This document shows, one piece after another, positions 23,896-62,200 of a stretch of 64,000 nt of DNA. How positions within the stretch are numbered: the stretch's first letter is position 1; every line of letters begins with the position of its first letter. The notes under the pieces are model-generated. The model did not search any database. It was not told the DNA's origin and worked only from the letters and a program-made list of their open reading frames with translations. The position numbers and the translations under genes are program-made. Source of the DNA: Tubiluchus corallicola (lineage: Eukaryota; Animalia; Priapulida); the NCBI GenBank assembly GCA_030141605.1, contig JAQGDQ010000773.1, forward strand, positions 1 to 64,000, written 5' to 3'.

Positions 23896-24286
23896 CATAA
23901 AAGACAGAAACATTTCATACAAAAGGTTCTTTGTATCACTTTATTTATGTAACTTGGAAGGCACTCATATAATGGGGGAGTTATGAGAGCAACAGAGTGA
24001 CAAAAGTTAGATGGTGTTTAACAGAGACATTAACAAAGCAGCCATTCCTTCCATACATGTTCCTTTTATTTGCGCTGTAGACTTGTAATGGGTAAGCAAA
24101 CGTTTTACCTGCACTAGTAAAAGCTGTGCTCCTTTATCATTATCAGCAGAAACATTTGACTCGCAGATGAGAATGCAATAACTGTGACCTGCAGTACTAA
24201 TTATTTTGCTTAAATTTCAAGAAGTATGTAAATATAAACACTGTCTATCACAGAACTTTGCAGTTTATAGTAATCTGTTCAAGGCG

Positions 24287-25129
24287 ATGACTAATGTGAC
24301 AGAGAACATCACTTACAGCGGAAAACAAGACAGCAAAATCATTTTAGTGCTGACTCTACATTTAATCTTGGCCATTCCCATAATTGTTGGTAATCTTCTT
24401 GTTCTGGTTGCAGTTTGTAAATATGAACAGTTGCGGACAAAAATGAATGCAATGGTCGTGTCACTAGCTGTTACAGATTTGTTAATCGGTGTAATCGGTC
24501 TTCCAATAAAAACTGTGAACATACTGACAAAAAAGGATAGTACAGTAATATATCTAGTATTTCTGACTTTAACTTATACGAGTATTCTGCACCTGGTTGT
24601 CATAGCTGCTGAAAGATACATGGCTGTTTTACATCCGTACAAGTACAATATATATGTCACTAAGAAAACGATAATTTGTGCACTTGCCATTACATGGCTG
24701 CTTGCGACTATTACAGCCTGCATTTTCATCTCATTTTCTTGGGATAAACAGGAAATGTTGTTCATTTTCTTAATTTTCAAACGCATTTTATTTTTCTACA
24801 TACCAATGGTTATAATTTCTGTCTTGTATGTGTTAATATGGAGGGCAGCACGGAGGCAAGTGTTGAGAATTCATCAAGAAAATCCGGAAAGCAGTATAAA
24901 AGTATCAGAAATGAAGGCAACAAAAATGTTGACTGCAGTCACGCTGGCATTCATGATTTGCTGGGGTCCTAGATTCATCATGCCTGAGGGCATTATGTCC
25001 ATTGAAATGCGAGGGTTCATCTTCTGGTTGGGGCATTGTAACAGTTTCGTAAATCCATTCATCTATGCAGTTCTGAACAGCAAATTCAGAGAAGCTTTCA
25101 AGAAGATTTGCCTGTGTAAAAATGATTAA
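24287..25129 (+). CDS. Intronless orphan rhodopsin-family (class A) GPCR, 280 aa
   Basis: Single ORF from ATG 24287 (MTNVTENITYS, two N-glycosylation sequons). Seven hydrophobic segments with TM1 GN, TM2 SLAVTD, TM3 ERY, TM4 W, TM5 P..Y, TM6 CWGP, TM7 NSFVNPFIY and helix 8 FREAF followed by Cys residues. The ORF track's start at 24206 is a TTG extension. Confidence 0.93.
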   Translation: MTNVTENITYSGKQDSKIILVLTLHLILAIPIIVGNLLVLVAVCKYEQLRTKMNAMVVSLAVTDLLIGVIGLPIKTVNILTKKDSTVIYLVFLTLTYTSILHLVVIAAERYMAVLHPYKYNIYVTKKTIICALAITWLLATITACIFISFSWDKQEMLFIFLIFKRILFFYIPMVIISVLYVLIWRAARRQVLRIHQENPESSIKVSEMKATKMLTAVTLAFMICWGPRFIMPEGIMSIEMRGFIFWLGHCNSFVNPFIYAVLNSKFREAFKKICLCKND

Positions 25130-26500: not shown

Positions 26501-29500
26501 ATGCGAGGAGTTTGTGTGATTTGTACAGTGGTTTTCGAAGAGACCGGACATCGGGACATCGCGGCTTGTCCTTGTATCCTTTTCTGTTGTTAGAGCTTGA
26601 ACTTTCTTATTTGTGTTGCATGTTGAAATGTGCTTATCATTGCTTATTACACACAGACAATACAACATATAAATTTGTCTACAGTTACTAAGTAATTTTT
26701 GAGCTGAGCGTAATTTCAGAATCTTCAGACAAAGAAGTTTGTGATTAACTAGGAATTGTTTTTGCTTCTCACTTAACTCATTCAGAAGATCAAAAGATTT
26801 TTCTTTGATGAAATAAAATTTTCTGCATTTTAAGGTAATGAAAGTAAGTAGCTCAATAAGTGACGTTGCTTTTAATGTACAAAGTCTAGTCTTTGTTTTT
26901 AAGCAGATGGAAATAATACTTTTGCAAAAACAGCAGCGACTACTGTACCTGAGTGTTCATAAGTGCATCTTGGCTTTCTGCAAGCTTACTCTGCTTAAAC
27001 TAATTCAAACTTCTGCAGCTTACCTTTATGTTAAGGTTAAAATATCATTATATTAATTATCTAATTTTTTGTGTAAACTTATTGTGCTTTAGATGAAAAT
27101 TGAAAGTGCATTGCTTCCCTTTAGTTGATGAACGACGTCATTGACGGAAAAATGAGCATTTAAAATGAGAGCTCCAAAGTACGAAGTGATCGCAACTTTA
27201 AAAAATTGTTTATTACTTTTTAACGAAGACATTATTATGTATTACGTGTGTGCTTGATTGTCATAGTTAGGCAGTACCAAGCCTAGTTATTATATGTAGG
27301 GATGACCACCTGGAAACTGGTTTTGGGCACTTACACTGCAATAATGCTTCTGGTTATTACTTATTGGCCTTGCTGAATGAGGACGTCTGTGAATTCCAGT
27401 GTGGCCAGAACACTTCTGTCAATGTTAAAATTTTTATCTAAGATGGTTATCCTCAATGATGAGCTAGGTTCCAGTCCCTCTACAGTCCTCAACGGTGTAC
27501 ATAACAAGCAAGACCTGCCAGTGTGTGTTGTTTAATGGTGGTGAGCCAAATTGTGACACACTTTTGTATATAATTAAAAGAAAATGTATGCAATTCAAGC
27601 TTTCATAGTCACAAAATTTTTTTCAATTTCCTTAACTGTAACGTTCAGGTGGCCATACCTATCACTATGACTGGTACGTATTAATACAAGCATTCATAAT
27701 TGTTTTAGTATTTTTTGATACGGCGTAATACTTACTTATTAATGAACACATGATTATATAGCGTGTGTTGTCATAAATGTGAACTTTCTTATTTTTTAAC
27801 TGTTACATTGTAGCATACTGTTCCGCACATGAGTACTGTCAAAGCTGATCCTGAAAGAAAACTAATATTTGGTACATTATTTAGCAATTGTATACATGAT
27901 ACAATCCTCGTTCTAGTTTTTAATGAGTGATTTTATGTGAAATAGCAATACTTCAGTATCGCAAAGTGAATAAAATAATCTAGCTGGTTATCGCTCTGAG
28001 CTGTTTCATTCACGATACTGATTCTGGTGGTTGTTCTCATAAAGCCAGATGTACATGCATCAAGAACGTGGCTACAGTGTCTCTTCTGGTTTAGTGGCTC
28101 AGCTTAGAATGATGTCCTTGATAATGAACCACGTTCCAGTGACTCCGCAAGTGTAGCGTTGAAAAGGTTTAGTCACTGCGTGCGAGATTTTTGGCTTACA
28201 GTGTGCCAAAGTGCACAAAAAATAGAAATCGATAAAGTAAAATGGTTGATCACCAGTAATGAAGAAAATTTCAAAAATGTTCTTAGTTACATATGGCATG
28301 TTATGACAGGCTCTCTGTTATATAGATGTATCTAAAATGATATCTTTAAGGCTACTAGACTAATAATAATTTCAAGCAAAGCTAGACGCAATCTGAAACT
28401 GTACGTCTTCACTGTTACGCGCATTTCGCCAGTCACCAGCTAGACGGGCACTAGCGCCTGCATTTTGGAAATGCATTGTACAAAAAAAAGTGCTCTACCT
28501 CTCAGTTCAGATGTGTTAATTTTTGTCGAACTACACACCTTTGACAGCTCAGCGGTAAATTTGAAATTTGAATTTTTATCTTAAAACTTGCCTAGTTTTA
28601 GTACAACACGCTGAATATCTCACAGTAGCATTGCACTTTAATTTTTGCTTTAATTACGCATAATTTAAAAATTACTTAATAATAACAATAATTTAATAAT
28701 TACTTTAATTAATACAATACGCTCGTGGAATATTTTTGCTGTTGAAAATTATATTAGTTTGTGATGTCATCAGTAGTTGGGCTCGCCCGACTTTAATTAA
28801 GATTTAACTATTATTTAATTATCAGAAACGCTTTTGCAGTATTCACCCTGTATTCGTTTAAAACATAGATGTCCTACCTGTTTACTGCAGGCATTCTGAA
28901 TGGTGGATAATTATCTTTCTGCATGAACTAATAGATGATGTGTCACTTTTATTTTTCTGTTCAACAGTTTATTTACCTGGTTGAATAATTCAGAGACTTG
29001 CCCATCATGCAGATATCCATGTTTAAAGAGTAGTGTTGTGAAGAAGCTGTACTTTCACTGTCCCGATGGTTATGAGAAAGTTGATGATCATCTTGACAAG
29101 TTAACTAAAAAACTTGAGAGAACCAGAGAACAAAAAGGTACTACTTTTCATTTTTGGTGTGTATTCATCCACCAAATAAATACACTATTTACTGTAAATG
29201 GTATTTTTTATGATTTATAATATTTTTTTAATGTTGGAATTAACATTTTTAATATATTTTTATACATTTTGTGATTTTTTATGATGCAAAATTCATCAAA
29301 TTTATACATTACTATACAATAAGTACTATGAATATGCAAAAATGCTTTAGACGGAGTACCGCAATGACCCGCGAAACAGCGAAAATACCGCGATAATTAT
29401 TTTGCATTAATATTCTTGAAAACCGCGAAACAGCGAGTCCACGATAAATGAACCGCGAAGTAGCGAGGGAATACCGTGCACGTGTATTTATGCTCTTAAT

Positions 29501-32278
29501 TTTAAATTGGTGCAACCTCTAATCGGATCCTTGCTGTAAACGAGGTTTTTGCTCAATCAAGTTTATCCTAGATAAATATTTTTTCCTATCTTATCTTTAT
29601 ACAAAGTTCTTGCATATAGACTAGTTGCTAATGTCAACATGTTTGCATTAGTCAAAATTTGCAGCCTGGTGTTTGTGTTTTGTACAGTGGCGGGTCGCAG
29701 CTAAAATTAATGATGCTTCGGAAATTTTTTAGCCATTGTTTTAATATCGTGTAAAACGAAACCAACATATAAAAAGAAACTTTATACATAAATTTGTTAA
29801 AATCATAGTTTTTACTTACTAATAGACTAAATTGTTACAGTTCATTAATTGAATTAATAAATTTAAGTTTGAATTGATTCATTCATTTAAAAACAAAATC
29901 CATTCTTCTTGGCTTAACTTTGTGCGAAAAGATTAATAGTTTTCTCTTTCGTTGACACTGCGTGAGTGACAGTACTTTCTCTGCCTTGAGTGTAGCGTGT
30001 TGTCTCACAACAGCCAACCAGGGTGTCACTGAAACTGTAAAGCGCACAGTTCTGCCATGTGCGCTCTAGTACCGTAAAAGTATTTACAAGTACGTACAAG
30101 TATAAAAAAAGAATCAAAGAAAAAAGCCTTAAATTATATTGAATATTAGCAATAATATCGAGTAAAAAATAAGTCGTTAAAGGGGGTGAAGCTTCTTGCT
30201 TGCATACATTTTAAAGCAAAACAGTTGGTAAGCCTACAAATAATATCTTTTTTTCAAGAGAATATTGAAGCTCAATTTGAACTCTTCAACCTGGATCTGC
30301 AAAAGAATGTTCGGGAACTAAAGAAGTTGATTGATTCGCAACAAAATCAACTCATCTTCTTGCAAAGGAAAGCGCAAGATGGAGACAATGCTAAACAAGA
30401 GGCAAAGGCTCTACGGGATAAACTGAGGTACTTAGAGAATTCTGTTAAAGAATTGTTGACCGGCCGAGAAGAATATGTGGAAAACTTGATCCGTGCAAGC
30501 TCAGGTGGACCGGAGCCATTAAAAAACATCGCGGTCACTGCTCTTTTGCAAAGGTATTTGGTTGCTGGTGGTTGTGATACTGTATTTAATTATTTATGGT
30601 AATCGTCGGTAAGATTATTTGTTAATGGATCAAAGAAACCCACAATTTTCGTTTTCATTTTAGGTAACACATCATGACGAAAAACGAAATGTTTGAAAAA
30701 ATAAGCACTTAGGGTAGCTTTGAACCTGGGACCGTTGGAGTTTCGAATTAGATTAGTAGTTTTGACTTGTGGTTCAAAGTTCTTTGATTGAATTTGGTTC
30801 AAATCCAATCAATCCAGGCAAATCTCGAGATCCCGGGTTCAAATTGAGCTCAATCCCGAGTTTTTCACATTTAGCAACAAAAAAATGCTTGGGTCAAGAA
30901 TTTGTCATTTATTGCTTGGTAACAAAATTATTTGTAATAATAAGTAATTACAGTAAATCCTCGCTTAACGACGCTAGTACGTTCCAGCAAAATGCCACAT
31001 TAAGCGAAACGTCGTTAAACGAACCAAACTTTCAATAGTAAGTAATGTAAAAGAATCGAGATACGTTCCAGAACTGTGAATTAATGCACCAATGCTGCTT
31101 AAATCATATAAATTAAATATTTTATGAGTTTTATTCATATTTCTACTGATTCATTTCTTTCTGTTTGCTTGAAACTACCTATCTTTCTTGCCAGTATCTA
31201 GCTAGACTGGCTAATGATTTCTACACGCTAACTGGGTGTTAAACACTACGTGGCGAAAGCCGTACAATGCATACATTGGGACAATTTCATGTAATACTAA
31301 TATGGTTGTTAGAGCAACAGGTTACTAACAAAATTCTTTGGCATAAAGTTTAAACTCGGGTGTTGCTTGGTACAAGCAGCTAGAATTTAGTACATAGTCA
31401 GTTAAGAAGCAAAAACATTGTAATAATTGTTCTAGTTACTAATGCATTTTTAGAACAGAGTAACGCAATAAGTACAGTTTTAGTGCTTCAAATTAGGTAA
31501 AAAAGTTTTTGATAAAATAAAATGTGGCTGTGCTCAAGGTAAAAAAATCATTGTTAAAACATAACGGTGCATCGTTAAGTAAGAAAACGCTGTCAAAAGT
31601 TCGGTGTCGTTAAAACGAAACGTCAGTAAATGGCGAGTCGTTAAGCGGGGACTTACTGTATAAGCCGTTATATTAAATTTGTAATAAAGACATTTTAAGG
31701 CATTTTAAGGTTATTTTCACATTTACTTTGTTTTCCTTATTGTCGGTGACATTAATCATTGATACTTGAAATAAATGTGCAGTGAAAGACTTTTGATTGT
31801 GCAATCTCATGTCTGTTGTAAGAATTATTGTTAGTACAATAGAAATGTGTTAGGACATTTTCAATTGTTCAAATCTTTCCCTTGAGTAATGTAGTAGTTC
31901 TCTAAAATTTCACAGGTTTCCCGAAATTTACATCTCTTTTAAATTTAAATGGATTAATGTTTACAGTTATGATATTTACCTGGTAGGAGCAAAACTAGAA
32001 ATAACTCTCCTTTTTCCGCCTTACGACAACTTTCTTATTATTGTTAGTGTATTACTGTATCATTGCATTTGTTGTTGTAAAATAATTCTATTCTGTTCTA
32101 TTATAACATCAACTTCAAAAATGGATGCATCCTAATATTGTATTTCCGACAATCTCATTCTTTGTTTAATTTTTTCAGCGAGCTGCAAAATGAAACGGCA
32201 TCAAAGAAGAAGCTGAAGGCTGTCGTTCGCCAGTTAAATGTCGCATTAAGAAAATCAGTTAAGAAAGTGGGAGACTGA
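26501..32278 (+). CDS. TRAIP: TRAIP-like RING-H2 E3 ubiquitin ligase, short form (5 exons, 220 aa)
   Basis: Exons 26501-26573, 27649-27673, 28968-29137, 30259-30553, 32179-32278 total 663 nt and keep frame. MRGVCVICTVVFEETGHRDIAACPCGHTYHYDCLFTWLNNSETCPSCR...KKLYF matches the TRAIP/NOPO N-terminal RING pattern. The coiled coil (AKQEAKALRDKLRYLE...LLTGREEYVENLIR) resembles TRAIP's EEARRLRSKMKTME...LLQSQRPEVEEMIR as recalled. Orthologue versus paralogue is unresolved. Confidence 0.85.
26574..27648 (+). other. U12-type (minor spliceosome) GT-AG intron, intron 1 of the TRAIP-like gene
   Basis: The 5' splice site GTATCCTTT at 26574 and branch site TTTCCTTAAC at 27627-27636 both match U12 consensus. 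The branch site is about 10 nt from the AG with no polypyrimidine tract between. Splicing rebuilds the Cys codon of the RING CGH motif. Confidence 0.92.
28380..28845 (-). mobile_element. Family A element, partial inverted copy
   Basis: Shares ctagacgggcactagcgcctgcatt...acgctcgtggaatatttttgctgttgaaaatt with 60560-60830. Confidence 0.7.
29686..30185 (-). mobile_element. MITE family B inverted copy
   Basis: cagtggcgggtcgcagctaaaatta ... attatattgaatattagcaataatatcgagt is the reverse complement of family B. Confidence 0.65.
30951..31658. mobile_element. pogo/Tigger-like MITE; related left end at ~8385-8410
   Basis: TIR cagtaaatcctcgcttaacgac / gtcgttaagcggggacttactg with TA TSD. Confidence 0.85.
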
Positions 32279-33279
32279 AATCATTTTAATGCATTTGAAA
32301 ATCATTTCAGTGCGTTTGAAAATGTTTTCTTCGAAATGAACTTGAAGCATGGAATCCTGGATTTGTAATCCAGACAGAACAGTTTAAGACGAAAATTCGA
32401 TTTCTCTAAAGCATTATACGAAAAGACAAGAACATAGTCATTCTTCATGTATTTCCTGGCGATAACTGCTGCAGTACAAACGTTGAATTTTTCTAATAAA
32501 AATACACTAAAATTTAATATACATCATAGTGGCTTGTTTGTGAAATGGATCTTGTTCTTGTTATAAAGTTTAAAAACTTTTGTATCTTGAATAAACCAAC
32601 TGGGGTGCGGTGGAATCCGACATTTCTTAAAACCGTAATGGCAAACCACACGATATTTTAATTTTCATTGGCAAAAACGTGACCAAAAAATGTTAGTCAT
32701 TCCCAAAAAATATTGTTACCAAAAAAACATTTTTTGGCAATAAATATTTTTAAGTATGTGGTTAATTATGTCATGAAATGGGTTGGTTGTGAGAAATGTT
32801 GAACTGAATAGTGACAATAATACTGTAAAAACAAACACAAAATACCATAATGACTGTTGATAATACTTACTATAATTTATATGTATATTTACAAGGTAAA
32901 ACATGAAAGTAGTATAATACTAACAACATTTGGTCATCTACATTTTTATAGGAAAGATAAATAACATGAAACTATACATTTAAATTATATTTGCAATGAC
33001 TTGTTTAGAGGTGTATTTACATAATCGAAAGTTACGTCAAAATTATAAAGAAATAAATCATTGTACAAGTATAAATAGGTTGATTTGTAAACATATTTAA
33101 ATGCATCTCTTAATTAAACACGTAATTATAATACAGAGTAAGCACTGATGGGAAGTCTAGCATTGGATACAATTATTTAATATGTAAATACAGTACACCA
33201 TGACATAGAAGAATATTAAATCATTAAGATTACTATCAGTTTAATTTAGTCACCATTTTAGAACAATCTGTGATTATGA

Positions 33280-35260: not shown

Positions 35261-38200
35261 CTATTTACGCCTAAACAAGGAGAATAGTCCTTTCTTACGG
35301 CTGTCACCGGAAACGGGAGAGGACGTACCACGACTTGTCGGACTGTTAGGGGAATCAACGAAAATTACTTCTTTAGGAGGAGGCGAGACGTTCCTCTCTG
35401 GTCGAAAATTAGTGCTATCTGGCTGTTTCAATATCTGTAAAGTAGATAAGAAGTTTATGAATGAAACATATCAGATTATTCAGTTTTCATATCACTATTC
35501 CTAGCCACAAGCTCAAGCTCACTTGCTGCTACGTCGAAATTCATTTTCCGTCATTCGCCATCAGATATTGCCATATGAGAAGTAAATGTGTTTAGTATAA
35601 ATGAAACATTGAATTCACTAAATTGTCAACATTTGCTACTTGACACTAATTTCACAAACGGCTTTGAAAACCAAAAACCAAAATTAAATTACAAAAACAA
35701 AAAATATTAAAAAGTTTGTATATGTAACTAACACTGATCATTTCACATAATTATGATTCTCTGTATTAAAGCAACTTGACAGTAGCAAATAACAACCTGT
35801 AAGAATCTCCATGGCATCTTTGTCAAATCACCATAAGAAAACCCCCTGCATGGCCAATTTAAATAGATTTTCCCATTAAGGCATTGTTAGACAATCTAAT
35901 TCTGACAATGCTTTGAACAGTGACCACTGGCATTGAGGCATTGTTAAACAATCTAATTCTGACAATGCTTTGAACAGTGACTACTCGCATTAAGGCATTG
36001 TTAGACAATCTAATTCTGACAATGCTTTGAACAATGACCACTCCCTGTGGAAATTACGAATCTAAAATTGTAAATATGGCTACAAGTTTAAAACAAATCT
36101 GATTTAAAAGTTTGCAGCAGAATTATAAGATTTCAAGTTAGTTCACTACAAATTAGCCTAAACTACGTTATAAGTTTTAATGTTGCTGCGAAAAATAAAA
36201 CTAGTGAAAAGGCAAGGCAAAAAACAACAGAAACCAAGTTTCCCAGGCATAAGAATGCTAATATGAAATGAAACACGTGTCCAAGTGATGCAAAATAATG
36301 ACTAATCATCATGAAACTCACGTGCAACTCTGAATTAATGGCTCACTCTACCGTGCATCAAACAAAACAAACCTAACCGTGCCTAGGAAACCGATTGCGC
36401 CATTGCTTATTGCCCTGACCTTGCAGGCGGAGCCACCAGTCTACTGACGTCTGCCCTGACTCACTTTCGGTGCCGCAGATCTTTGCGGTGGCTTTGGCGG
36501 CGTCGCATTCGGCTGTCGCGTGTTGGGAACGGTGCCGTCTCGCCCAGCAGTTCTTACTACCTCGGCATCGGGTGGCAATTCTTGGAGAAAATTGGAAGGT
36601 ACAAGGCCACGAATACCATTGCTTTCACCCATAAAGAAGCCATCGTCATCCATGTCTCCATAGACGTACAGTATGTCTCCTGTTCTAAATGATAACTCGA
36701 CCTGTAACGAAAAACAAACAACAAATAAATTGTAGAACATAAAATTACAATGCACCAGGAACAGAGATAATTCTTAACCAGTGTTTTCAATTACATGAGT
36801 GGATCAGTTGCCTATAGACTGCTAAACTCACTTGAACCCTTGCTTGCGAGGATTTTAAATTTCGAAAGATGCCCTGCTTAGTGCAGCATGGTTCTACTTT
36901 ACTTAAGACTTTGTATAACATTACTTGTAATTGTAATTTTATTTTTTCCTAGATAATCTTGTACTTTTTTTATAATTTTAATGTGAACTATACGTTCCAA
37001 ATAAATGATATAATATATATATTACTTGAAAATATTATCTGTAATAATCACAAACTGTTCAGTAATTTGTAAAAAAGGTGTAACACTCGTTTGTAAACTA
37101 TAGATTCATTATGATTATGATTTTGGATTTTGCATAAACATACAAATCATGTCCCAAGTCTAATTATCGCTTTTATAAACTCATTTTATAAAAAAAAACT
37201 TTATTTCAACTAGTAAACACATCTAAATTCAGATTAACGCAGTTCTGATCACTAAATCTTTGCATGATGACCGTGACCAGCAAAAGTAGAACACAGTGAG
37301 GCACAAATATATATAATGCATTTCCTTATGGAGAAAATTATCAAAGTTTCCAATGACAAGAAAGATAAGTTGTTTTCAAAAAACTTTCATTTGTCCACAT
37401 TTCATAAATTAAAAAAAAGCAAAAATAAATATGCAATGGAAGTTGACAACAACCTGTATGCGGGATGTTTCATAAAAATCACAATTTACCTGGTCTTGCT
37501 GAGTTAATTACATACCTCGGCATCAACATTCGGTGACAGCTCGTTGGGATCGTAATCATACAGTGCCACCATGCGGCGTATTTTTACATTACCCTGACTC
37601 CGACTATCCTTTAAACCAGTGCCTTCAAATAACAAATAGTATCTCATTTCTTTTTCTTCTTCGCACAACACTTGGTAATTCTCAGCTGCAAAGTTTGCAC
37701 AACTAATACAGCATATGTAAACACAATTTAAGTTAATAACCTTAAGCGCTCACACTATGGCAGTGGCGGCTCGTGTATAGGTCCCCTATTAGACCTCTTT
37801 ATAGGAACTGTGGAACGGCAGCACCCCCTATTTTTCCTCAATATTATCAATAATGTTCAATATAATAAGTCTTTTTTCTTTAGTTCTTTCTTTGTACTTG
37901 TACGGAACCAGAGCGCGTGAGGGTAGTACTGTTTGCTTCACAGCCCAACACAGTGGTGTTCAGCTGTTGTGCACATGCGGCCATGCTCACATGTATGAGA
38001 TAACACGTTGTATGCTGCACTGCTAGCATCTGCTGCTAGGTAGATTAAGAACTGTCGCTCACACAGTTTGTTATCAGTTGTCACGTGCTTAAAAACTGTG
38101 TACCAGCATATTCTTGAACTGCGGCAATATAAGTTATTCGTAAACAAAAACTTTTTGTTTAGAATGTTATGTACAAATTGTTGTATGTTTGTTAGTTTAA

Positions 38201-41200
38201 AATTACAATTACAAATTGCAACATGAAAATTACATATGTTTGTTTCGTTTTACACAGTATTAAAACAATGGCTAAACATTTGGGGGTTTGTCTGAAGCAG
38301 AACCCCACTAATTTTAACTATGGCCTGCCACTACACAGAGTTACTATTGCACATGCATATGTTGTTTTACAATTGGGCAAATGACAAATGACTGTTAGTC
38401 AGAATATGTATTTATTAAACTTTTCATTGTTCACGTTTTGCACAGGAAGATTCTGTCTCTGTCACTCAAATGGGAAATTTCTCTTCATTGAAATTTCCAG
38501 GTTTTCTTATGCTTGGAAAAACGTAAAATTAATAAAATGCCAAATCTGTTACATACCATCGAAACTGTTTTCGAGTATTTTAATAAAGAATTAACAAATA
38601 GGTGTAAAGCATAAGAAAACACTCTTCATAAATAAAGCTTAAAAAATTCATCTGGAAATTTTATATCAGTTACAAGCTGTTTTACTGTATCCAGATTGCA
38701 GAACTTGAGTTAGCAGCATAACGCTGTATAAAACTTGTAAATTTAAACTGCCGTGATGACAGTTAGGCGGAGCCATTTTGACAATCAGTAACTCATTTGA
38801 AATAAGTTTAGCGAACACTGAATGAAGTCTAAAAAATAATCAGAACATTTATAACACACATTTCCCTAACTAAGCAAACGTTTAAATTACTTCATATTGT
38901 CAGTAACGCCAATTGTGGTGAATCGGTGATGCACTCTGGGATGGCAACGCAGTACCGCAGCACGAATAATTCAATTTATTAAAAATTTTCTTTTCTAATT
39001 ACATAAGTCTTTCAAACAGGTGAGCTTAATATTAAGTAATATAACTTTGTGCGGAAACTCTTTTGGGACACACTTTAAATTTGCATTTCTTCTCCTTTAA
39101 TGTACGAGTAATTCATATTTAACAAGCATGTAAACAACTAGAACAAGCAAACTATTCAGTGTATTAAAACACCTTCCCTCCCTACATTTACATTATATAT
39201 GTATACAAACTACTTACCCTTTCCTCTTCGTGTTGGTTTCATTTCTGCCTCACTAGATGGAGCAGCATCTGCGCCTGATGGCTTGCTGCTTTCGCTTAAC
39301 AGTTCGGCGGCTACATCAGCATCGTCTACCTGCACTTCGGACACCATGTTACACGGTATTAATCCAACTTGTCCACCTGTCTCGCCACGATAAAATCCGT
39401 CCTCATCTTTATCGCCGAGTACCTATTCAAAATCAAATACTGAATCCAACACTCTGCCACAATCCAACATCAGCAGTGGAGGGCTAATTTTCAATAGTTG
39501 TGGCAAGACTGGAAATAACATAATTGCCAAGAATAGTCTTTTAAGATGAGACACTAGACTGGCACACCATGCTGAAAAGTTAACATAACAGTCACCTATC
39601 CGCTTACTAACCAAGCCCCATGTTGTTCAATGTCATGCTCTGACCACTCAACTATTTCATTTGCCTAATATATACCTGCTTAGAATAAATTGGGATTTAC
39701 GTCACATAATGGGTGACTATTTTGCACCTTTACCAATTGTCCAGCTTTAAACATCTTGAAATGCATTTTGTACCTTTATCAATTGTCCATCTTTAAACAC
39801 ATTGAAATGCATTTTGTACCTTTATCAATTGTCTAGCTTATTGAAATGCATTTTGCACCTTTATCAATTGTTCAGCTTTAAACATACTGAAATGCATTTT
39901 GTACCTTTATCAATTGTTCAGCTTTAAACATATTGAAATGCATTTTGTACCTTTATCAATTGTCCAGCTTTAAACACGTTGAAATGCATTTTGCACCTTT
40001 ATCAATTGTCCAGCTTTAAACATATTGAAATGCATTTTGTACCTTTATCAATTGTCCATCTTTAAACATATTGAAATGCATTTTGTACCTTTATCAATTG
40101 TCCAGCTTTAAACATATTGAAATTCATTTTGTACCTTTATCAATTGTCCAGCTTTAAACATCTTGAAATGCATTTTGTACCTTTATCAATTGTCCAGCTT
40201 TAAACATATTGAAATGCATTTTGCACCTTTATCAATTGTCCAGCTTTAAACATATTGAAATTGATTTTGTACCTTTATCAATTGTCCAGCTTTAAACGTA
40301 TTGAAATGCATTTTGTACCTTTATCAATTGTCCAGCTTTAAACATTAACTCCTCGCTGCACGCATCTGGATTTGGTGACATGACTTTTGGATCATAATCA
40401 AAAAGCGCAACAAACATCCTGACGCTACTCATCGAATCTTTGCGCTGCGGTTGTGTTTGGTCAACCGAACTTCGATGACCGGGCGTCTTCGGCATTTCAC
40501 GTCTTCCTTCGGTTTGTCTGCCAATTCGTGAACACTTTTTATATTCCACTTGTACGTTTGAAATGAGTGAACCACAAAGAACAAGACAATTATGTAACAT
40601 TTTATTTTAAAACTGCCTGATTAAAGTCAATTATGGTTATGATATACTTGTTCATAGCACAACTCAACATACGGTAGAATCCCAAATGCAACAGGCTTAT
40701 TTAAAGGAAGACAAGATGATTTTTCATATACTACCCTATTTTCAACGATAAAAAGTATACATTTTAGCACAATTAATACTGCAAAAGCATTTCTAATAAT
40801 TAAACAATAGATTAAAATCTTAGTTAACGGTGGGCGAGCCCAACTATTGGTGACATCACAAATAAACATAATTTAAAACAGTAAAAGTATTCCATGAGCA
40901 TGTTTCACAAAAGTGTTGTACAAAAACTAGGCAAGTTTTAAAATAAAAATTCAAATTTCAAATTTACCGCTGTGCTCACGCATGAGCTGTCGAACGTGCA
41001 TAGTTCGTCACAAACTAACACATCTGAATTGAAAGGTACAGCACCTGTTTTTGTGCAACACTTTCCGAAATGCAGGCGCTAGTGCCCGTCTAGCTAGCGA
41101 ATGGCAGAATGCATGTAACAGCTAAGAACTAGTGGCGTGAATGCGAAATTGTGTTTGTGTGGTAATAATTCTTTTACGTAAGTCGTTTTTGAAAAAAAAA

Positions 41201-44200
41201 TAGTATGTTTCGTTTCAATATTTTAAAGAGTGGATAGTATTGAGCTACAGTTTATTTAACATTGAGTCCAGTTTTGCTTTAACATTGAAGTGTGTTGTAA
41301 CACTTCATACATAAATTTAGCACCAACAAAACAAATGATGTAATCTTTTACAGTTATGCAAGAAATTCTCGTAGTAATTGGCAATAGCCTTTATTCTGAC
41401 GAAACATGAGACTCCAAGTTGCCTTATGTTTTGAAGTACGAAACAGTAGGTGAAGTCATGCAGGACCTTACTAGATTCTCTTTTTAAATTCAACTTTGCT
41501 ATTTTCGTTTCAGACATGACTAGTGTAGTCAACGTTTGAACAATAACAGGTCACTCTTACATAAATCTCACGAAAGCTGGGGTCAAGTCATCGAAAAAAT
41601 GACTGAAAGTATCACTCCGTATTTTCCACTGACATCTCACCTGTTCCCCTCCTTTGGTCTTTCACGTTCTGCATCCCGCTCCTTTTCACCTTCTCTCCGG
41701 CGCTCCTTATCTGGTCTACCGTACTGATCTGCTGCTCTTCGACTTCTGTCCTGTTCTCTGTCTCCCTCTCGATACTGCTGTCTGTAACATGAAACATAAA
41801 CTAGCATTCTAAAACACTGTACCTTTGGACCTGCATTGATTTTGATTCTATGAAAACAACAAAAATGTTTTGCTGATCAAACGTTGCTAACTTGAAAAAA
41901 TCAAACACTACTGACTTAAAGTAGGTCTAATTATTAGCTGTTGCCTTTTCACACCATAAATGTTGGCATAATAAAAATGCTACCAAGTTCTGCTCACAGA
42001 TGAAAGGCTAACTCCTTCAGGACCATACGTTTTTACTGCATTTTGCATGGGTTCATGAAAAACTGCTCTCACTAACATTATATTTGATCATTTTTGCGGG
42101 TTTCTACGCCTCGCACTAAGCACTTTGCAAAATTATATATAAAATGCATTTGCTTACCTTAGACAAATTAAAAATCGATTACTGACGAATAAATAGAAAA
42201 AAGCTTCAGTAACTATAGTGCTTGCACTGTAACAATGTACAGTATCACTTGTGCAAAATCAGCTAATGTAGAAAATTTCAATTGTCCACACACAACACAC
42301 TAATAGACTTTAGTCTCACGTCTGCTCTGTTTTTAATGAGAAATTGCTGCTAAAAGAAAAAACGACATCAGTTTGTCCTGGGCTGATCAGTTGGTTTTTC
42401 CTAGAATAGCAGCAAAACACTGCACAGCTTGGCTGTAGGAAGCAGTCGATCAATAAAATAGTGTGTACGATCACGCAAGTGTACACCAGACTAAGCTACT
42501 CAATTGGCTAAGTTGGAATGCCTGAAGAGGACGTGTTTTTCTTAATTTTATTAAATTAAATCACTTATAAATGTTTAAACAAATAGCATGATTAGACAGC
42601 CTAGACTCCTCTGAATAGAAGAGTACCTAATTTGTTATCATTTAGTTATGTCTGTACTCATACAGTAGCAGGAAAGTCATAGGTCTTATAAGACCTATGT
42701 GAATCGAATGGTACAGTCCTGAAGAAGTTAGTGACTGAATCTCAATAGAAAAGAACACACGTCAATAAAACTGCCAAGAATGAGTTGGTTTCCTCACCTC
42801 CCATCTTCGTGATCACGTTCTCTTCTGCCTCGTCCACGCTCTTCATGTCTTCTCTCGTCTCCATTTCTAGATCTGCCTGCAGACTGCGGTCGGTCATCTG
42901 TAATTCTCTCTCTCCTTCGTCCACCAGATTGGGGACGCTCGTCTAAATCTCTTTCCCTCCGCCTGCTGCCAGATGCTGGCATCTCTTCTCCATCTCTTCT
43001 CCTTCCAGAAGAGTGAGGTCTCTCTTCTAATTCTCTTTCCATTCTTCTTCCGGTAGAGTGAGGTCTGTCCTGTAGGTCTCTTTCCCTTCGTGCAGCTGAG
43101 GGCAATCGATCATCAGCTTCTCTTTGTCGTCCAGTGGAATGTGGTCTCTCTTCACCACCGCGCTCTCTTCGTCTTCCTCCAGGTTTCGACTGATCTTCTC
43201 CATTCTTAACTTTGTTGGGCAGCTGCTGTCTGTCTTTTTCCACTAGCTCCTCGTTTTCTCGCTCTCTCCTATCTGATATTCCCCTGGTTCGTCTTTCGTA
43301 CTGTTCTCTGTCACCGTACCTTTCCCTTTCGCGTCGTTCTTGTCCGCCCCTGACTTTATCGGATCGTTCCCTTGTCCGTGACTTCATAGCTTCCTCTTCC
43401 AGAACTCTTTCCCTCACTGTTGAATCTTGACCTCCTCTGCCTTCCTTGCTGCGTTCTTCTCGTCTTTCGCCTCTTCTATGCGGAGCCGATCCTTGCTGAG
43501 CTTTTCCTCGAGGTTGCCTAGCGGGAGACACGCTACTTGCTGGACTTTCCTCTTCATCTGAAAAATCGCCCGAATCACGAGTAACTGCTATCATTGGAAT
43601 GGGAACACTACCGGGATAGACTTCTTTATCACTCAAATCCTCATCTTCATCTACCATTATCTGGTCTTGATGAAGAGGAAGCTCGCCGCTCAAGGGCATT
43701 GTTTGAATTCGCTCACCATCAGGTATACCTCTGCCACTGTCTTTCACCTATAAAAACATGCCAAATAGCAAAAGTTAATAGTTATGGCAAAACTAAAAAC
43801 GTATAGCAAGAATTCTACACTAGAAAGGTGCTAACTTGAAATATGCTTATATTTTTAGAACCAAACACAATGAAACACAAGCTTACCAATCTCCTAGTGC
43901 CATCAGTTTCTCTTTGCGGCACGTGCCGTTCGTGTCTGCTACTTCGGTCGATTCCGGTCTCCATCTGCGTTCTTTTAAGCTGATCTGCATTTGGTCCAGC
44001 GCTCCCTTGTGGTGACATCGGTGATCTTCCGCTCTGCATTGTTTGGTCGCCCTGTTTACGCAACTGAGGAACTGAGACGGCGTGACTTTTACCATCCATG
44101 GATGTCCGCTGGCCTGCCATGTCTGTGTTAGAATACGAAAGTTCAAAAGTATGAAGAAAACAATTTGAATCATCATAATTGTTTTACAGGCAGTCCTCGA

Positions 44201-50200: not shown

Positions 50201-53200
50201 AACAATTAGTATCATAGAAAACTTGATTAATCAGTAACAATTAGTATCATAGAAAACTTGATTAATCAATAACAATTAGTATCATAGAAAACTTGATTAA
50301 TCAATAACAATTAGTATCATAGAAAACTTAATTAATCAATAACACTTAGTATCATAGAAAACTTGATTAATCAATAACAATTGGTATCATAGAAAACTTG
50401 ATTAATCAATAACAATTAATATCATAGAAAACTTAATTAATCAATAACAATTAGTATCATAGAAAACTTAATTATTTAATAACAATTGGTATCATAGAAA
50501 ACTTAATTAATCAGTAACAATTAGTATCATAGAAAACTTGATTAATCAATAACAATTAGTATCATAGAAAACTTGATTAATCAATAACAATTAGTATCAT
50601 AGAAAACTTAATTAATCAATAACACTTAGTATCATAGAAAACTTGATTAATCAATAACAATTAGTATCATAGAAAACTTGATTAATCAATAACAATTAGT
50701 ATCATAGATAACTTGATTAATCAATAACGATTAGTATCATAGAAAACTTGATTAATCAATAACAATTAATATCACAGAAAACTTAATTAATCAATAACAA
50801 ATAGTATCATAGAAAACTTAATTATTTAATAACAATTAGTATCATAGAAAACTTAATTAATCAGTAACAATTAGTATCATAGAAAACTTGATTAATCAAT
50901 AACAATTAGTATCATAGAAAACTTGATTAATCAATAACAATTAGTATCATAGAAAACTTAATTAATCAATAACAATTAGTATCATAGAAAACTTAATTAT
51001 TTAATAACTCAACAGTTATTTATAAAACTAGGTTACAGACTTACAATTAGATGTTGCCTTATTAATTGTAGCTATCGTTAATTAGATTTTATGATTTTTA
51101 CCGAAAGCTTTAAACACATTAAAAAAAAACTTTCTTTACTGTTTGTTATCTAAAATGGCCTAACATTTAAAAATGACTTAAAGGAAGACATGATTTTTCA
51201 CATACCACCTCATTTTCAAGTCCGATAAAAAGTGTACATTTTAGCACAATTAATACTGGAAAAACGTTTCTGATGAATAAATAATAGATAAAAATTTAAT
51301 TAATGGCAGACGTGCCAAACTATCGATTACTTCACAAATTAACAATAGCAAAAATATTCCACAAGCATGATGTAATTGCAAAAGTGAAAATTGAAATACA
51401 GTGCTACTGTAAGATATTCAGTGTATAAAACTAGGTAGGTTTTAAGATAAAAATTCTAATTTCAAATTTACTGCTGTGCTCACGCACGAGCTGTCAAACG
51501 TGTGCAGTACGTCACATTTGAACACATCTGAAATGAGAGATACAGCACCTGTGCAACACGTTTCCGAAATTGTGTCCTGTTTTGCTGTAAAGCTTTATTG
51601 CACTAGAAACCAGATTTCATCTGTTTTTCTTGTTACACATTCGTCATATTTAACGAGAGGGACAACGGTGACTGTTTCTCAGAGAAAAGTCCTGCACTGA
51701 AGACTTGTACTCAACTACATTATCGCTAGCTGTGTCCTAGAGCCATTAATGAAGTTCCTTTGCAATATATAATTACCAGAAACATTTTTGGTCATTATCA
51801 TAGCTAATAAAGGGCGTATTTTAGACTACAGGTCAAGATTAGGTATGATCAAAAAATCGTTTTAGTTTAATGTTTAGGCTACTACTACAAGATGACCATC
51901 GATCATTGTTTATTTCACAGTGTGACTTACTAGACGGGCTTTCAATTGCGGTCACTTTGCGTCCGTCTGCAAAAATTGCGTAACCCGTAACAACAGCACC
52001 ATTAGAAATGCCAGAATTGCTGGCAACCGGCATCCACGTGACAAGCAACGTGCCGTCTTGAGGACCTGCTTCAACTTGCACATCTGCTGGAGGGTCTGGA
52101 ACTCCTATTGCAAATAAGAAAACAACACAGTGGTAAATGAAATACCAAACTTTCATTAAATTATTGCTATACGTATTCAACACGATTTATAAGAATGAGA
52201 AACGGCCCTTCGGGGGAGAGACATAGTCGCTCTTTCTGGCTGTTAAACATTACTTAACTTATCAAAAGTGGGTGACTTGTTTTAATAATTATGGCTATAC
52301 TTGGAAAAAGGTTTCTTACATAGTTTCCTATAAAGTATCCTACATATATTATGAGGTATTTCAGGTAATTTTCAAATTAAATTTAGCTGAAAACTTAAAT
52401 TTTGAATTTCACCTCAGAATACCACACAAGTTAAACTGTGATATCATCAGGGCAAAGTCCACCAATGCAAATAATGCAAAAATTGAATCCATCTTTGCAA
52501 TACTTTTACATTGCAGGACACTAAAAATTTTAAGCAAGAAATTCCACCTTCCTAAGCTTCGGGCATTCGAAGTAAAGACACAGTGTTTATAGTACGCACT
52601 CTTAAACTAGACCGATTACATAAATTACCCCTTCCGGGAATATTAACACTAATAATGTTGATTTATAAATCTCCAGGTACCTCCGGAAAGTGTCTGAAAG
52701 TCAATGTGGGCAACCGTGGGTTTACTGTTTTCACTTTGGCTCTGTTTGCTTTTGGCTCTGACTGATACTGTGTACCAAGTATTGGGGGCTAAACCTGAAA
52801 ACAAATATGCATAAAATTACAATTTGAAAATGACAGCAGCAGAAAACAATTGATACTTCTCACCGGCTCCAGGTAAACAACTTCTAGTATATGTATATTA
52901 TCAGGATGGGTGTTTCCGTAAACATAAACCACTTTTCTACTTCCGTAAACAGGAACCACTTTTCCACTTCCGTAAACACAAACCACTTTTCCACTTCCGT
53001 AAACATAAACCACTTTTCGACTTCCGTAAACATAAACCACTTTTCTACTTCCGTAAACATAAACCACTTTTCTACTTCTGTAAACACAAACCACTTTTCC
53101 ACTTCCGTAAACACAAACCACTTTTCCACTTCTGTAAATACAAACCACTTTTCCATATCCGTAAACACAAACACTTTTCCACTTCCGTAAACACAAACCA

Positions 53201-56200
53201 CTTTTGCACTTCCGTAAACATAAACCACTTTTCGACTTCCGTAAACATAAACCACTTTTCCACTTCCGTAAACACAAACCACTTTTCCACTTCCGTAAAC
53301 ATAAACCACTTTTCTACTTCCGTAAACACAAACCACTTTTCCACTTCTGTAAATACAAACCACTTTTCCATATCCGTAAACACAAACACTTTTCCACTTC
53401 CGTAAACACAAACCACTTTTCCACTTCCGTAAACATAAACCACTTTTCGACTTCCGTAAACATAAACCACTTTTCCACTTCCGTAAACACAAACCACTTT
53501 TCCACTTCCGTAAACATAAACCACTTTTCGACTTCCGTAAACATAAACCACTTTTCTACTTCCGTAAACATAAACCACTTTTCCACTTCCGTAAACATAA
53601 ACCACTTTTCGACTTCCGTAAACATAAACCACTTTTCTACTTCCGTAAACATAAACCACTTTTCTACTTCCGTAAACACAAACCACTTTTCCACTTCCGT
53701 AAACACAAACCACTTTTCCACTTCCGTAAACACAAACCACTTTTCCACTTCCGTAAACATAAACCACTTTTCGACTTCCATAAACATAAACCACTTTTCT
53801 ACTTCCGTAAACATAAACCACTTTTCTACTTCCGTAAACACAAACCACTTTTCCACTTCCGTAAACACAAACCACTTTTCCACTTCTGTAAATACAAACC
53901 ACTTTTCCACTTCCGTAAACACAAACACTTTTCCACTTCCGTAAACACAAACCACTTTTCCACTTCCGTAAACATAAACCACTTTTCGACTTCCGTAAAC
54001 ATAAACCACTTTTCCACTTCCGTAAACACAAACCACTTTTCCACTTCCGTAAACATAAACCACTTTTCCACTTCCGTAAACATAAACCACTTTTCCACTT
54101 CCGTAAACACAAACCACTTTTCCACTTCCTTAAACACAAACCACTTTTCCAGTTCCGTAAACACAAACCAGTTTCCCACCCAACACGCTCCTCAAGAGAG
54201 TGAAAACAACTTCGCCACTCACCCGTTACCGTGTACTTGTAGACGCCTGCTTTTACCAATCCCACTTGTACGTTGTTCACTGACATGGCATGATCATAAC
54301 TACTGTTGCTTGGAAGCCACATAACCGTACAGGAAGTGGCCATGAGATTAAACACTTTGATCTCACTCGGTGCTAACGACAAATCTATAAAGAAAATCAC
54401 TGCTAACTGCATGACTAATACTTCAGTTGCTGGAAAATAAACGAATATGTTAATAAGACACAAAAGCTTTTCCACAAAGCAGCTAACGCAGCAATTACTA
54501 CTGAAAATGAACTACGTTTTCATACAATTTATAAGCCGGAAAGAAAATGATTATACTAAATAAACACGGGACTCAGCTGATACTAAAGTGAAGTACTTCT
54601 GTGCCATTTGCAACCAGGTGAAATAACAACAGAACTGCATAAATATAGTACAGTATAGGTTACCTTTTCCTATAATAATGGTACATGCTGGGTCTTTCGA
54701 CTGTCCCTTCTTTGTTACAGTCCTAACAGATATGCGATGATTCTAAAAAATTATACTTTGAAAAGTGAAGTAGAAGAGAAAAAACATGTTAGCGATAAAC
54801 TAAGACACAACTGAAATGATACACTGACTCAAATTCAAATCACGGAACTAAAGTTATAAGAACTTTAGAACTACAAAATTTAATACTATTAAGTAATGAG
54901 CGCTCTTTTCTAAGTATATTACATATAGATATCCATGCGGAAAGTAATTCAGTGAAACACTTGGTTATTTATGCACATCTGATTTATTTTCAATATTTTG
55001 TTTGTTCATTTTTTTAATTCTCTTAATTCAGATGCTTAAAGCACAAGAAAACCCCTTACATAAAGCTTAAAAAATTCGTCTTGAAATTTTATACCACTTA
55101 CGTGCTGCTGCCTTTTAGCATACACGGTTTGCGTCGTCCGTAACGCTGTATAAAACTTGTAAATTTAAACTCCCGCAATGATCTTGAGGCCATTTTGATG
55201 GTAGGTCGATTGAAACAAATTTAGATAACACTGAGTAAAATTTGAAAAAATAATCAGAGCATGCACATGTTGCTAACTAAGTAAAATTTTAAATTACTGT
55301 ATCTTGTCAATAAGATTAAAAATACTTTTTGGTTAGTGAGTGTGGAGGGTGAGTCCAAATTTTACCAAATTGGCACGAACATTTTAAATTATTATTTCTA
55401 GTTACACAAGTCTTTTAAGCAGGTAAGTGAATTACAGATTTGCATGGAAAGTTGTTTGGGACATAATTTAACATTGTTTTTTCTTCCCCTGATTTACGTT
55501 TGCGTTTGTGAGGTCATGTAATGGCGACTTCGGAACAGTATTGCAGGAGATTATAATGAAAACAAATAAAAATTCCTTTCAAAGCGAATATGATATACGC
55601 ATAAAATTGCTGCAAAGTAATATAATTTTTTAAAGCGATTTTTCTGAAACCACTTCTGGTGCCCCTTTCTTGTCCTTCAAGAACATGTTTTTCACGAAAG
55701 CAACGTACCACATTCGAATCGATGTCTTCAAGCAATGCTTTAGTGTTCTCCCGGCCACCAACAACTGCTCGTAACTGCGCGTCAACGTAGACGTGATATG
55801 CTTCGATACCTCCAGATGGCAGCACATCGGGTGGAAGCCAACTTATAATCATGCTACGACTCAGCTGCCGCTCAAGTTGCAGGTGCGTAGGGGGAGGCAC
55901 TAAAAATTGTACACAGCTTTAAGTGTGAAATTTCCGAATCTTTTAAAAAAAATTCACTACACGTAACATACGAATATAATGATAAATTCTCATTTCTAGT
56001 TGTAGTGCCAACTCTTGACCATACTTGACCATTTGTATAAGTGCTAAATAAACCATCATTTGAAATTAACAATTGCTCTTTATGGGTTTAGGAACAAGAC
56101 TGCTCTCTCTCTCTCTGTGTTTGAAAAAGTAGTTAAATATGCAAATAGTTTTGACCACAGGAATCTCGACGGTTAAATACTGACGACAAGGCAATTGTGG

Positions 56201-59200: not shown

Positions 59201-62200
59201 ATACTGCAGTGTATTAATCCCCAAATACCACTACTACCTCTCCTGTCAGGCTTATGTGCTTACATAGGTAACTAAAAACATTACCTGCTGACTCTCCATC
59301 TCCAGACTGCAGACGTAAGTGCTCATAAAATTCTGGCATATCTTCCACGGCCACTTGTTCTACAAAGTTCGAAGGCACCAGACCCTTTTGTCCATCCAGA
59401 AGCTCACCCTCGAAGAATCCATCCTAAAAATAGTACGTAGATTGTAGCCTGTTTAGTTGACGAATGACTCTTTAAGCAGCCTTTTTATAATTTTAACCTT
59501 TACCGAACTAACATTTTTCACTGGTAAGAAACTTTCTGGAAAAGGTTTCTTTCAAAGACAGTGTTAAGAAGCAAAACAAATGTATTTTAAGTTATAAAAC
59601 AAACAGGAATAAACATAAACAAACAGCTATTAACACGAAATACTAGTGCTCGAGACATGTTTAGTATACCTCATCCATCTCCCCATGTATGTACACATAA
59701 TCTCCAGCCTTGAGTGAAAGTTCTGCCTCTGGATGCTCATTGGGAGACTGCTCCATAGGATTGTAGCTATACCTCGCAATGTACACCAAATAGTCAACAG
59801 GCACGGCACTGATTCCTTCCTGTTTCCGTAGCAACCGTGGAGCTATCGTCACACCTTTTTTATCTACCAATGTGTTGATAGCTATTAATCCTGATAATGA
59901 TTTTCGTATTTCATCACATTAAATCACGCAATTTTTTAAATAAAATGAACAAACTTGCAAAGGTTACGGTAAAAGGAACTACAGTTAAGTGTTAGAAAAC
60001 ATAATTTCCATGGACAATTTGCCTTTTATTACGAATGTACTGCAGCTTGCTAAAATTTATCTTCAAGTTGCTATATAAATCAAATTAACTCTCCAAAACT
60101 GGCAACACTGTAGAATGCTAAATCAAGTTCCAACATTTTACTGACAAAACGAAGTTGCTTCATTGCTTAAAGTGTTAAAAAATCTTATCCCCACATAAAT
60201 TTTTCACATTAAAACTGCAAAACTTAAAATAACAAATCTACACATTTTAGCTGCTATTGTTATTTATAAATTTTGATACACATTTTGTCTGACAGATGAA
60301 GCAGGATGGAAATTGAAAGGTGATGATCTCACTCCAGGCTAGAATCAGGTAAGAGCTCCTTAAGAAAACAATCTAATTTAAAGCAAAACCGAACCCAATC
60401 TTAAACTGTAGATCAAAACAACCTGCTCTTTAAAATATTGAAAGAAAACATACTATTTTTTCAAAAATGACTTACGAGAAAGAATTATTACCACACAAAC
60501 ATAATTTTGTGTTCGCGCCACTAGTTCTTCGCTGTTACATGTATTTTGCCATTCGTTAATTAGACGGGCACTAATGCGTGCATTTCGGAAACGTATTGCA
60601 CAAAAAAGGTGCTGTACCTCTCAATTCAGACGTGTTAGTTTGTGACGAACTACATACGTTCGACAGCTCATGCGTGAGCACAGCGGTAAGTTTGAAATTT
60701 GAATTTTATAACTTGCCTAGTTCTAGCACAACACACTGAATATCTTACAGTAGCACTGTACTTCAATTTTCGCTTTTGCAAACACGTGCAACACGCTCAT
60801 GGAATATTTTTGCTGTTGAAAATTATGTTAGCTTGTGATGTCACCAATAATTGGACTCGCCCGCCATTTATTAAGTTTTTAATCTATTATTTAATTATTA
60901 GAAAAGCTTTTGCAGTATTAATTGTGTTAAAATGTATACTTTTTATCGAACTTGAAAATGCGGTAGTATATGAAAAATTATCCTGTCTTCCTTTAAGTTC
61001 AAGTTGTTAACCCGCACATTGTCTCTTAAAATGAACAACGAATATTCTTCAAATCTTCCGAAGGACTTTAACATTTCAACGAAGCAATGACAAACCTATC
61101 AAATTCTGTATTTCATCGTCCTCGTCCGATGTCGAAAGAGCTCGAATTCGTTTGGCAAGTTCACCGATCTGCTGCAGCCCGTTAGCCGTATCTGTGACAC
61201 CAATAAATGTATCATCATCTGCTAATGCTGGCGGCACAACTGCGTAGAAACAATAAAATAAACATAATTACATGCCAAATGAACAGCTGAGAGCTAATAA
61301 AGCAGCAAATTTTCATAGCAACTGCAATTTGGCTGATCAAAACTGGTTTAATTAATGTCAGTTAGTAATTTTTTTATTAAATGAATAATTTTGTGCAAAA
61401 AACTACATTACGAATTCAGGGGCGTATGAAGACTTTAGGACGCCCTAGGCTGATAGTTCTGTCCCGCCCATCTCTGTTTTGAATTCATGGTTGCTTAGGT
61501 GATAAACAGATTAAACAATTACTTGTGGTGTATTAGAAGCACTGTTAACCTAGTCTCTATGTGATCAGTATTAATTATGTGTATTTGCATAACGTTTATA
61601 TTCAAACAGGCTGCGTTACTGCTTGTTGTGTAATACCTTACACCTGCTCGTTATGTGGCATTTATATAAAAGCTGCACTCAGTAACTGTCTGTGGTGTGC
61701 TATAAAATGTGTGCTTTGCATGAATATGAAAGTACACATATTTTCCAAGGAGAATAAGAATTTTTCTCTGAAATGTGACGCCCCTCAAACTTTGGCGCCC
61801 GTGCTATAGCCTAGTTAGCCTATTGGATAATACAATTACAATACATTTTGTTTGAGACAATAAGTTTAAAAAAGTACAAGTTTGATAATGACTTCAACTT
61901 TTTAATTTTTTTTTTAAATCTACCGACTTTAATCTCGTTTTGATTTGCCAAATCACATAATTTATAAGCTAATAACGTTAAACTAAGCTGCACTACGTTA
62001 CGTAATGTTATCAGTAGATCAAGAAATTACACGCATTTGTTCAAACTAAATATAACGCAAAATAGAAAATACTTCTACAGCAGAAACAGACAAAGGAATC
62101 ATCACAGGCTAGTAATGGGTCAGTAAGTTTTTAGAAATCTTTCATTTACTTAGTAGTGCTGCAAATACAGATTGAGCATAACTTACCAGAATAAAAAAAA

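Follow-up and report, generated by a model that had tools for sequence, protein, structure and literature searches.

Minisatellites whose first unit extends across an exon-intron boundary have been described in the human genes F7, 6-16, CBS, LMNB2 and PDGF (Borensztajn et al., 2006, PMC1557585). The 37-bp VNTR in intron 7 (IVS7) of F7 presents five to nine identical donor sites of which only the most upstream is used, although the copies can function (PMC1557585). Likewise, only the first site is used in LMNB2 and in PDGF, where the array is located in intron 4; two downstream copies are used as well in 6-16 (intron 2) and CBS (intron 13) (PMC1557585). Arrays termed mirage minisatellites are known from the amphioxus globin genes BflGb6 and BflGb9 and, as cited in the same work, from Adh3 (PMC3087553). 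Mirages are unstable in length and reportedly leave normal splicing undisturbed, and the gain of introns from mirages was put forward as a hypothesis (PMC3087553). In addition, latent 5′ splice sites that are located behind in-frame stop codons are abundant in mammals, are normally unused and can be activated under stress, as described for human introns (Nevo et al., 2012, PMC3510495). Here an array on an exon-intron boundary of a RIM-binding protein gene is compared with these systems. The window is the whole stretch of DNA that was analyzed, with a length of 64,000 nt.

Results

The exon that ends at 40319 on the minus strand of the window matched RIMBP2/TSPOAP1-type proteins (18 hits among 23 candidates), and 12 of the 18 carried a RIMBP2 or benzodiazepine-receptor-associated name. 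In tblastn comparisons, RIMBP2/TSPOAP1 proteins aligned on the minus strand as an SH3 stretch, an FN3 region and two SH3 stretches, in that order, and Pfam detected Ig_RIMBP2 (E 1.5e-24) together with SH3_2 in the host gene. As judged from this order, which corresponds to the SH3 domain, three FN3 domains and two C-terminal SH3 domains of the family, the host gene is a RIM-binding protein gene of the RIMBP2/TSPOAP1 family, and is denoted RIMBP. The exon adjoining the array (40319–40517) is likely 199 nt in length, is in phase 0 and ends partway through the second SH3 domain (SH3-2), within its first half, as indicated by Pfam SH3_2, tblastn, the reading frame and a contig of sequencing run X2. 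The part of the Pfam SH3_2 profile that precedes the intron (positions 2–25) is weak alone (E 0.099). The exon start at 40517 was set from the reading frame and the spliced X2 contig, and the exon-intron boundary at the array was placed by homology and frame. The authentic 5′ splice site, AAG|GTACAA (40313–40321, minus strand; GT starts at 40318), opens an 896-nt intron, the distal, non-repeat part of which spans 39423–39718 and includes the acceptor AG at 39424–39423. When 40319 is joined to 39422, the reading frame is kept without a stop and SH3-2 is completed, its second half being in the next exon (39218–39422; Pfam SH3_2 positions 26–55, E 3.6e-7; tblastn). Downstream exons on the same strand within 36440–37610 (~37516–37610 and 36701 onward, with approximate outer ends) correspond to the third SH3 domain (SH3-3), as identified by tblastn and, for the second piece, by Pfam SH3_2 (E 4.2e-11).

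One protein, P0018, which derives from a 1243-nt contig, matched in tblastn to the same place, followed by unrelated residues and then the end of the protein. P0018 can be read as a gene call from another animal that ran on into an intron located at this position, and the array-bearing intron therefore likely predates the array. The likely acceptor before the 40319–40517 exon (40517–40540, minus strand) is atypical, with a pyrimidine share of 0.41. As this acceptor and the donor both are weak, the exon before the array might be partly skipped. Elsewhere in RIMBP intronic sequence, 37800–38300 and 38600–39080 are occupied by high-copy interspersed repeats for which the summed contig depth in run X1 was in the thousands compared to <10 in unique flanks.

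TRF identified a tandem array at 39719–40345 with a period of 46 bp, 13.8 copies, 91% matches and a score of 1065. Read on the minus strand, the unit comprises the final 27 exon nt up to the AAG|GT donor and 19 nt that are read as intron, namely the 9-nt intron start and 10 more nt that are absent after the last copy. These 10 nt may be either filler that arose at the initial duplication or sequence that was lost from the distal end of the array. The coding copy (unit 1) is the consensus of the units. The minus strand of the array harbors 14 AAG|GT(A/G)CAA sites, in which GT starts at 40318, 40272, 40226, 40180, 40134, 40088, 40042, 39996, 39950, 39904, 39858, 39819, 39773 and 39727; the spacing is 46 nt in 12 of 13 intervals and 39 nt in the other. 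GTACAA is present at ten of the 14 sites and GTGCAA at four. The TRF array and these sites agree with the original prediction of repeated exon-end and donor copies in RIMBP, with the correction that 13 extra donors, not ~12, follow the first (39722–40275; nine GTACAA and four GTGCAA). All 13 copies retain AG|GT. Donor 1 and the copies have 27 nt in common, and GTAC opens both the intron and the next exon, so that a junction is ambiguous over 31 nt and 31-mer contigs do not discriminate between the donors. The units differ from unit 1 at 0–3 positions (mean 3.5%). The array also had been described as degrading distally, but the trend is weak: divergence versus distance for units 2–14 was not significant (Spearman rho 0.44, p = 0.14), and units 2 and 13 are equally divergent. 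No other match to the unit was found by blastn in the window, as anticipated from the claim that it is unrelated to the array in SMYD4. A transposon origin was rejected on the same lack of a second match within the 64 kb.

Sequencing runs X1 and X2 were compared with the two flanks of the array, each taken with 1–1.6 units. Among the runs listed for 42790–44130 there was no RNA run, which is no evidence on expression. Run X1 covers introns and behaves as low-depth DNA. Its unit-to-unit contigs were at depths of 14 and 41 and its flank contigs at 4–4.65, where contig depth is not a copy number. As unit-to-unit contigs are present in X1, which is possibly but not necessarily independent of the source of the window, the array is not peculiar to this assembly. 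X1 differed from the window at 15 positions in a 555-nt contig nearby and at several flank positions. The unit divergence of 3.5% is near to this difference, which fits an array that is young or homogenized. In run X2, the contig at 40388–40520 showed 14 differences and a loose end that matched the upstream exon end (24 of 30 letters by eye). X2 is spliced RNA of a relative and supports the upstream junction into 40517; the contig stops at 40388, short of the donor at 40318. It is scarcely credible that the array is a false expansion produced during assembly. The copy number derives from one assembly and no contig was seen that spans the array, but the units bear both distinct and shared variants, and the unit-to-unit contigs are present in X1 despite its different flanks.

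Donors were scored with a matrix derived from 30 other donors of the window and compared with the leave-one-out scores of the latter. The authentic AAG|GTACAA site matches the consensus at five of nine positions and its score of 4.4 exceeds that of only one of the 30. Nine of the 13 copies are identical to this site over positions −3 to +6, whereas the A+3 to G change, which is the most widespread variant (4/13 copies), scores 3.3. Three unrelated GT sites in the same intron (39675, 39595 and 39567) score 7.1–8.5, well above the array donors, and thus stronger latent donors already exist in the intron. The weak donor may rely on an exon context that the copies do not possess, yet nine copies are its equal in sequence. 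Among 12 distinct unit variants, one is located inside the donor 9-mer compared to 2.3 expected (p = 0.29, low power). Retention of AG|GT in the copies is expected, as there are only these 12 variants over 46 positions, and their distribution over the unit showed no sign of selection for working donors at this low power. Folding of four stretches yielded z values of −0.52, 0.15, −1.87 and 0.33, of which the stretch of three internal units (z −1.87) had a marginally better fold than its shuffled versions (13 of 200). Masking of the copies by RNA structure found no clear support in any of the four stretches.

Read-through past donor 1 reaches a stop, as the original prediction had stated, and this stop is TAA at intron nt 25–27 (40294–40292). 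This in-frame codon in unit 2 (40292–40294, minus strand) is common to all products that read past donor 1, and is included by all 13 later donors, even those that add a multiple of three. Any later-donor mRNA, in which the 199-nt exon would extend to 245–790 nt, is predicted to encode one identical protein that ends eight residues past donor 1 and lacks half of SH3-2 and all of SH3-3. Intron retention is predicted to yield the same peptide as every copy, and thus the copies add no protein variety. Under the junction rule, a stop codon well upstream of a later junction directs the transcript to NMD. As a later junction (39218/37610 region) is >200 nt downstream of the TAA, later-donor mRNAs are predicted to be sent to NMD. 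Neither AATAAA nor ATTAAA is present in the intron, and intronic polyadenylation was rejected accordingly. Three related expectations, namely that donor 1 is the sole productive site, that use of later sites would truncate SH3-2/SH3-3, and that the products would undergo NMD, all hold at the level of prediction: donor 1 joins in frame to 39422 and every later site is behind the TAA.

The frequency of arrays on donors was considered with a set of 13 non-overlapping arrays of period at least 27 that was drawn from 52 TRF rows, with ~two-copy and short-period rows excluded. The 13 minisatellites cover 9697 of 64,000 nt (15% of the window). Arrays here seem to grow from arbitrary local sequence, because 11 of the 13 units were without a blastn match in the window outside their own array. 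With a base rate taken from this window and 35–55 donors assumed, of which 30 were hand-checked besides the focal one, 0.29–0.75 arrays are expected on a donor, and the probabilities of at least one and at least two are 0.25–0.54 and 0.03–0.17, respectively, depending on the assumptions. Two of the 13 were observed on donors, in RIMBP and in SMYD4 (10752–11836), which is a mild excess in a small sample. The stop codon likewise needs no selection, because, when 5000 arrays were constructed from random intronic 46-mers, 4869 of them (97%) reached a stop within three units; plain 45-nt intron windows contained a stop in 6448 of 10,180 instances.

The SMYD4 array (plus strand) consists of 40.2 copies of a 27-bp unit that comprises the last 22 nt of the exon and GTAAG. 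The best matches of SMYD4 exons were 52–65% identical. In this array 38 copies match a strong (A/T)TAG|GT(A/G)AG donor, no stop interrupts the read-through frame within the array, and the 5-nt sequence AGTTA is found at both ends by eye, as slippage would leave. Use of a later copy would add nine residues per unit, which makes this array the better splicing test case. The RIMBP and SMYD4 arrays had been contrasted as out-of-frame and in-frame cases, respectively. This contrast reduces to unit length and is uninformative in itself, because unit length is divisible by three in six of the 13 arrays.

Other features of the window were noted. The 32-bp array at 6512–6768 is an amplified piece of a sequence that is found once more at 60381–60411 (28/31 identical), at the end of an apparent dispersed repeat, and an interspersed element seems to have given rise to the array. 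By eye, the arrays at 7027–8355, 52914–54179 and 6512–6768 start or end ~25–70 nt from an exon edge without covering it; this proximity may reflect only short ancestral introns. An intronless rhodopsin-family GPCR open reading frame (24188–25129, plus strand; 313 aa between stops; Pfam 7tm_1 at E 5e-37) lies between SMYD4 and a small RING-finger-like gene (28939–32300; zf-RING_2 at only E 0.069).

Discussion

The RIMBP array is best explained as a real, likely young and neutral minisatellite that spans the exon-intron boundary and probably arose, without function, by the local tandem amplification that is frequent in this genome, with the first donor likely used and the 13 copies silent or nearly so, a reading to which we assign a probability of about 0.75. 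Duplication of a donor-spanning piece would have been followed by its expansion through slippage or unequal crossing-over, and the duplication would have been tolerated since the first copy kept the exon and donor intact. The donor nearest to the exon would prevail through exon definition or 5′-to-3′ scanning, as in F7, and rare leaks would be cleared by NMD. By this analogy, copies 2–14 are likely silent. The neutral reading is favored by the architecture shared with F7 and mirages, the frequency of unrelated arrays nearby and the premature stop as a default outcome, as well as by the lack of excess donor conservation, the lower score of the commonest variant and the presence of stronger GT sites. 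Weighing against it, the weak donor and nine identical copies among 13 could favor leakage, two downstream copies are used in 6-16 and CBS, arrays on donors are somewhat above expectation, and the three-unit fold has a z of −1.87.

Leakage without selection would entail that a measurable part of splicing starts from copy 2 or 3 and that array length slightly alters the amount of good RIMBP mRNA in the manner of a splicing QTL, with no evolved switch. A donor that is weak and faces identical competitors at 46-nt intervals is consistent with such leakage, as are the recruitment of the closest two copies in 6-16 and CBS (PMC1557585) and the activation of human latent donors behind stops by stress (PMC3510495). 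Nevertheless, this outcome is unlikely, as the published accounts describe use of only the first site in F7, LMNB2 and PDGF (PMC1557585) and no disturbance of splicing by mirages (PMC3087553). It is very doubtful that array length serves as a heritable dial, with more units sending more RIMBP transcripts to NMD, so that individuals or cells would differ in their dose of a presynaptic calcium-channel scaffold, a proposal that stems from the unusual weakness of the true donor and its nine identical competitors. Were the dose of RIMBP indeed determined by copy number via NMD, a synaptic protein would be under a control that mutates fast.

Conserved poison or decoy elements are recognized by regulated use of an unproductive site that is revealed when NMD is blocked, and by selective conservation of the unproductive signal. 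The original prediction viewed the copies as decoys, that is, as donors through which RIMBP transcripts would be routed in a regulated manner to NMD or to a protein without SH3-2 and SH3-3. AG|GT is kept in all 13 copies, and all alternative products stop at the same codon and lose the C-terminal SH3 domains. However, both the retention and the stop are expected from the variant counts and random arrays described above, the donor 9-mer shows no special conservation at the low power of the comparison, and the peptide is that of intron retention. Moreover, the intron has no AATAAA or ATTAAA by which a short form might be stabilized, the array seems young and has 12 unrelated arrays around it, and the downstream copies in F7 are silent (PMC1557585). 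A literature search found nothing on RIMBP arrays, and for RIM-binding protein alternative splicing, SH3 domains and NMD returned RIMS2 only. Functional decoys consequently are not supported and are very improbable. Still less plausible, to an extreme degree, is recursive splicing or a step toward a new intron in which the AG|GT of each unit acts as acceptor and donor at once. Each unit does carry AAG|GT, and intron gain from mirages has been hypothesized already (PMC3087553), but the pyrimidine share before the unit AG is 0.35 compared to 0.41–0.76 at eight likely acceptors (three of which are offset by 1–2 bases), the final mRNA would be unchanged, and a normal acceptor is present at 39422.

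On present evidence the RIMBP array is of little importance, as published instances of this architecture exist for humans and amphioxus. It is of value as a further natural test of how the spliceosome of an invertebrate chooses among donors that are identical, here with a weak donor, for which the in-frame SMYD4 array 29 kb away provides a comparison case.

The RIMBP array is, by structure alone, a boundary-spanning minisatellite of the F7 or mirage type. As in the F7 class, the first unit spans the boundary and near-identical pseudo-donors follow the authentic donor, with similar unit size and copy number. It differs from F7 in that 27 of 46 nt in the unit are exon-derived compared to four of 37, and in the weak donor and invertebrate host. 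As in the amphioxus mirages (Ebner et al., 2010, PMC3087553), exon-intron boundary copies with splice signals are repeated in tandem in a repeat-rich invertebrate genome that has several unrelated cases. The amphioxus Adh3 mirage units are given as 10–72 bp (PMC3087553), a range that includes the 46 bp of the RIMBP unit. The RIMBP copies resemble human latent sites as intronic donor-like sites whose use adds a premature stop, but are tandem copies of the true donor, whereas the latent sites are single and scattered in human introns. Thus, the array probably is a further example of an architecture already known in humans and amphioxus.
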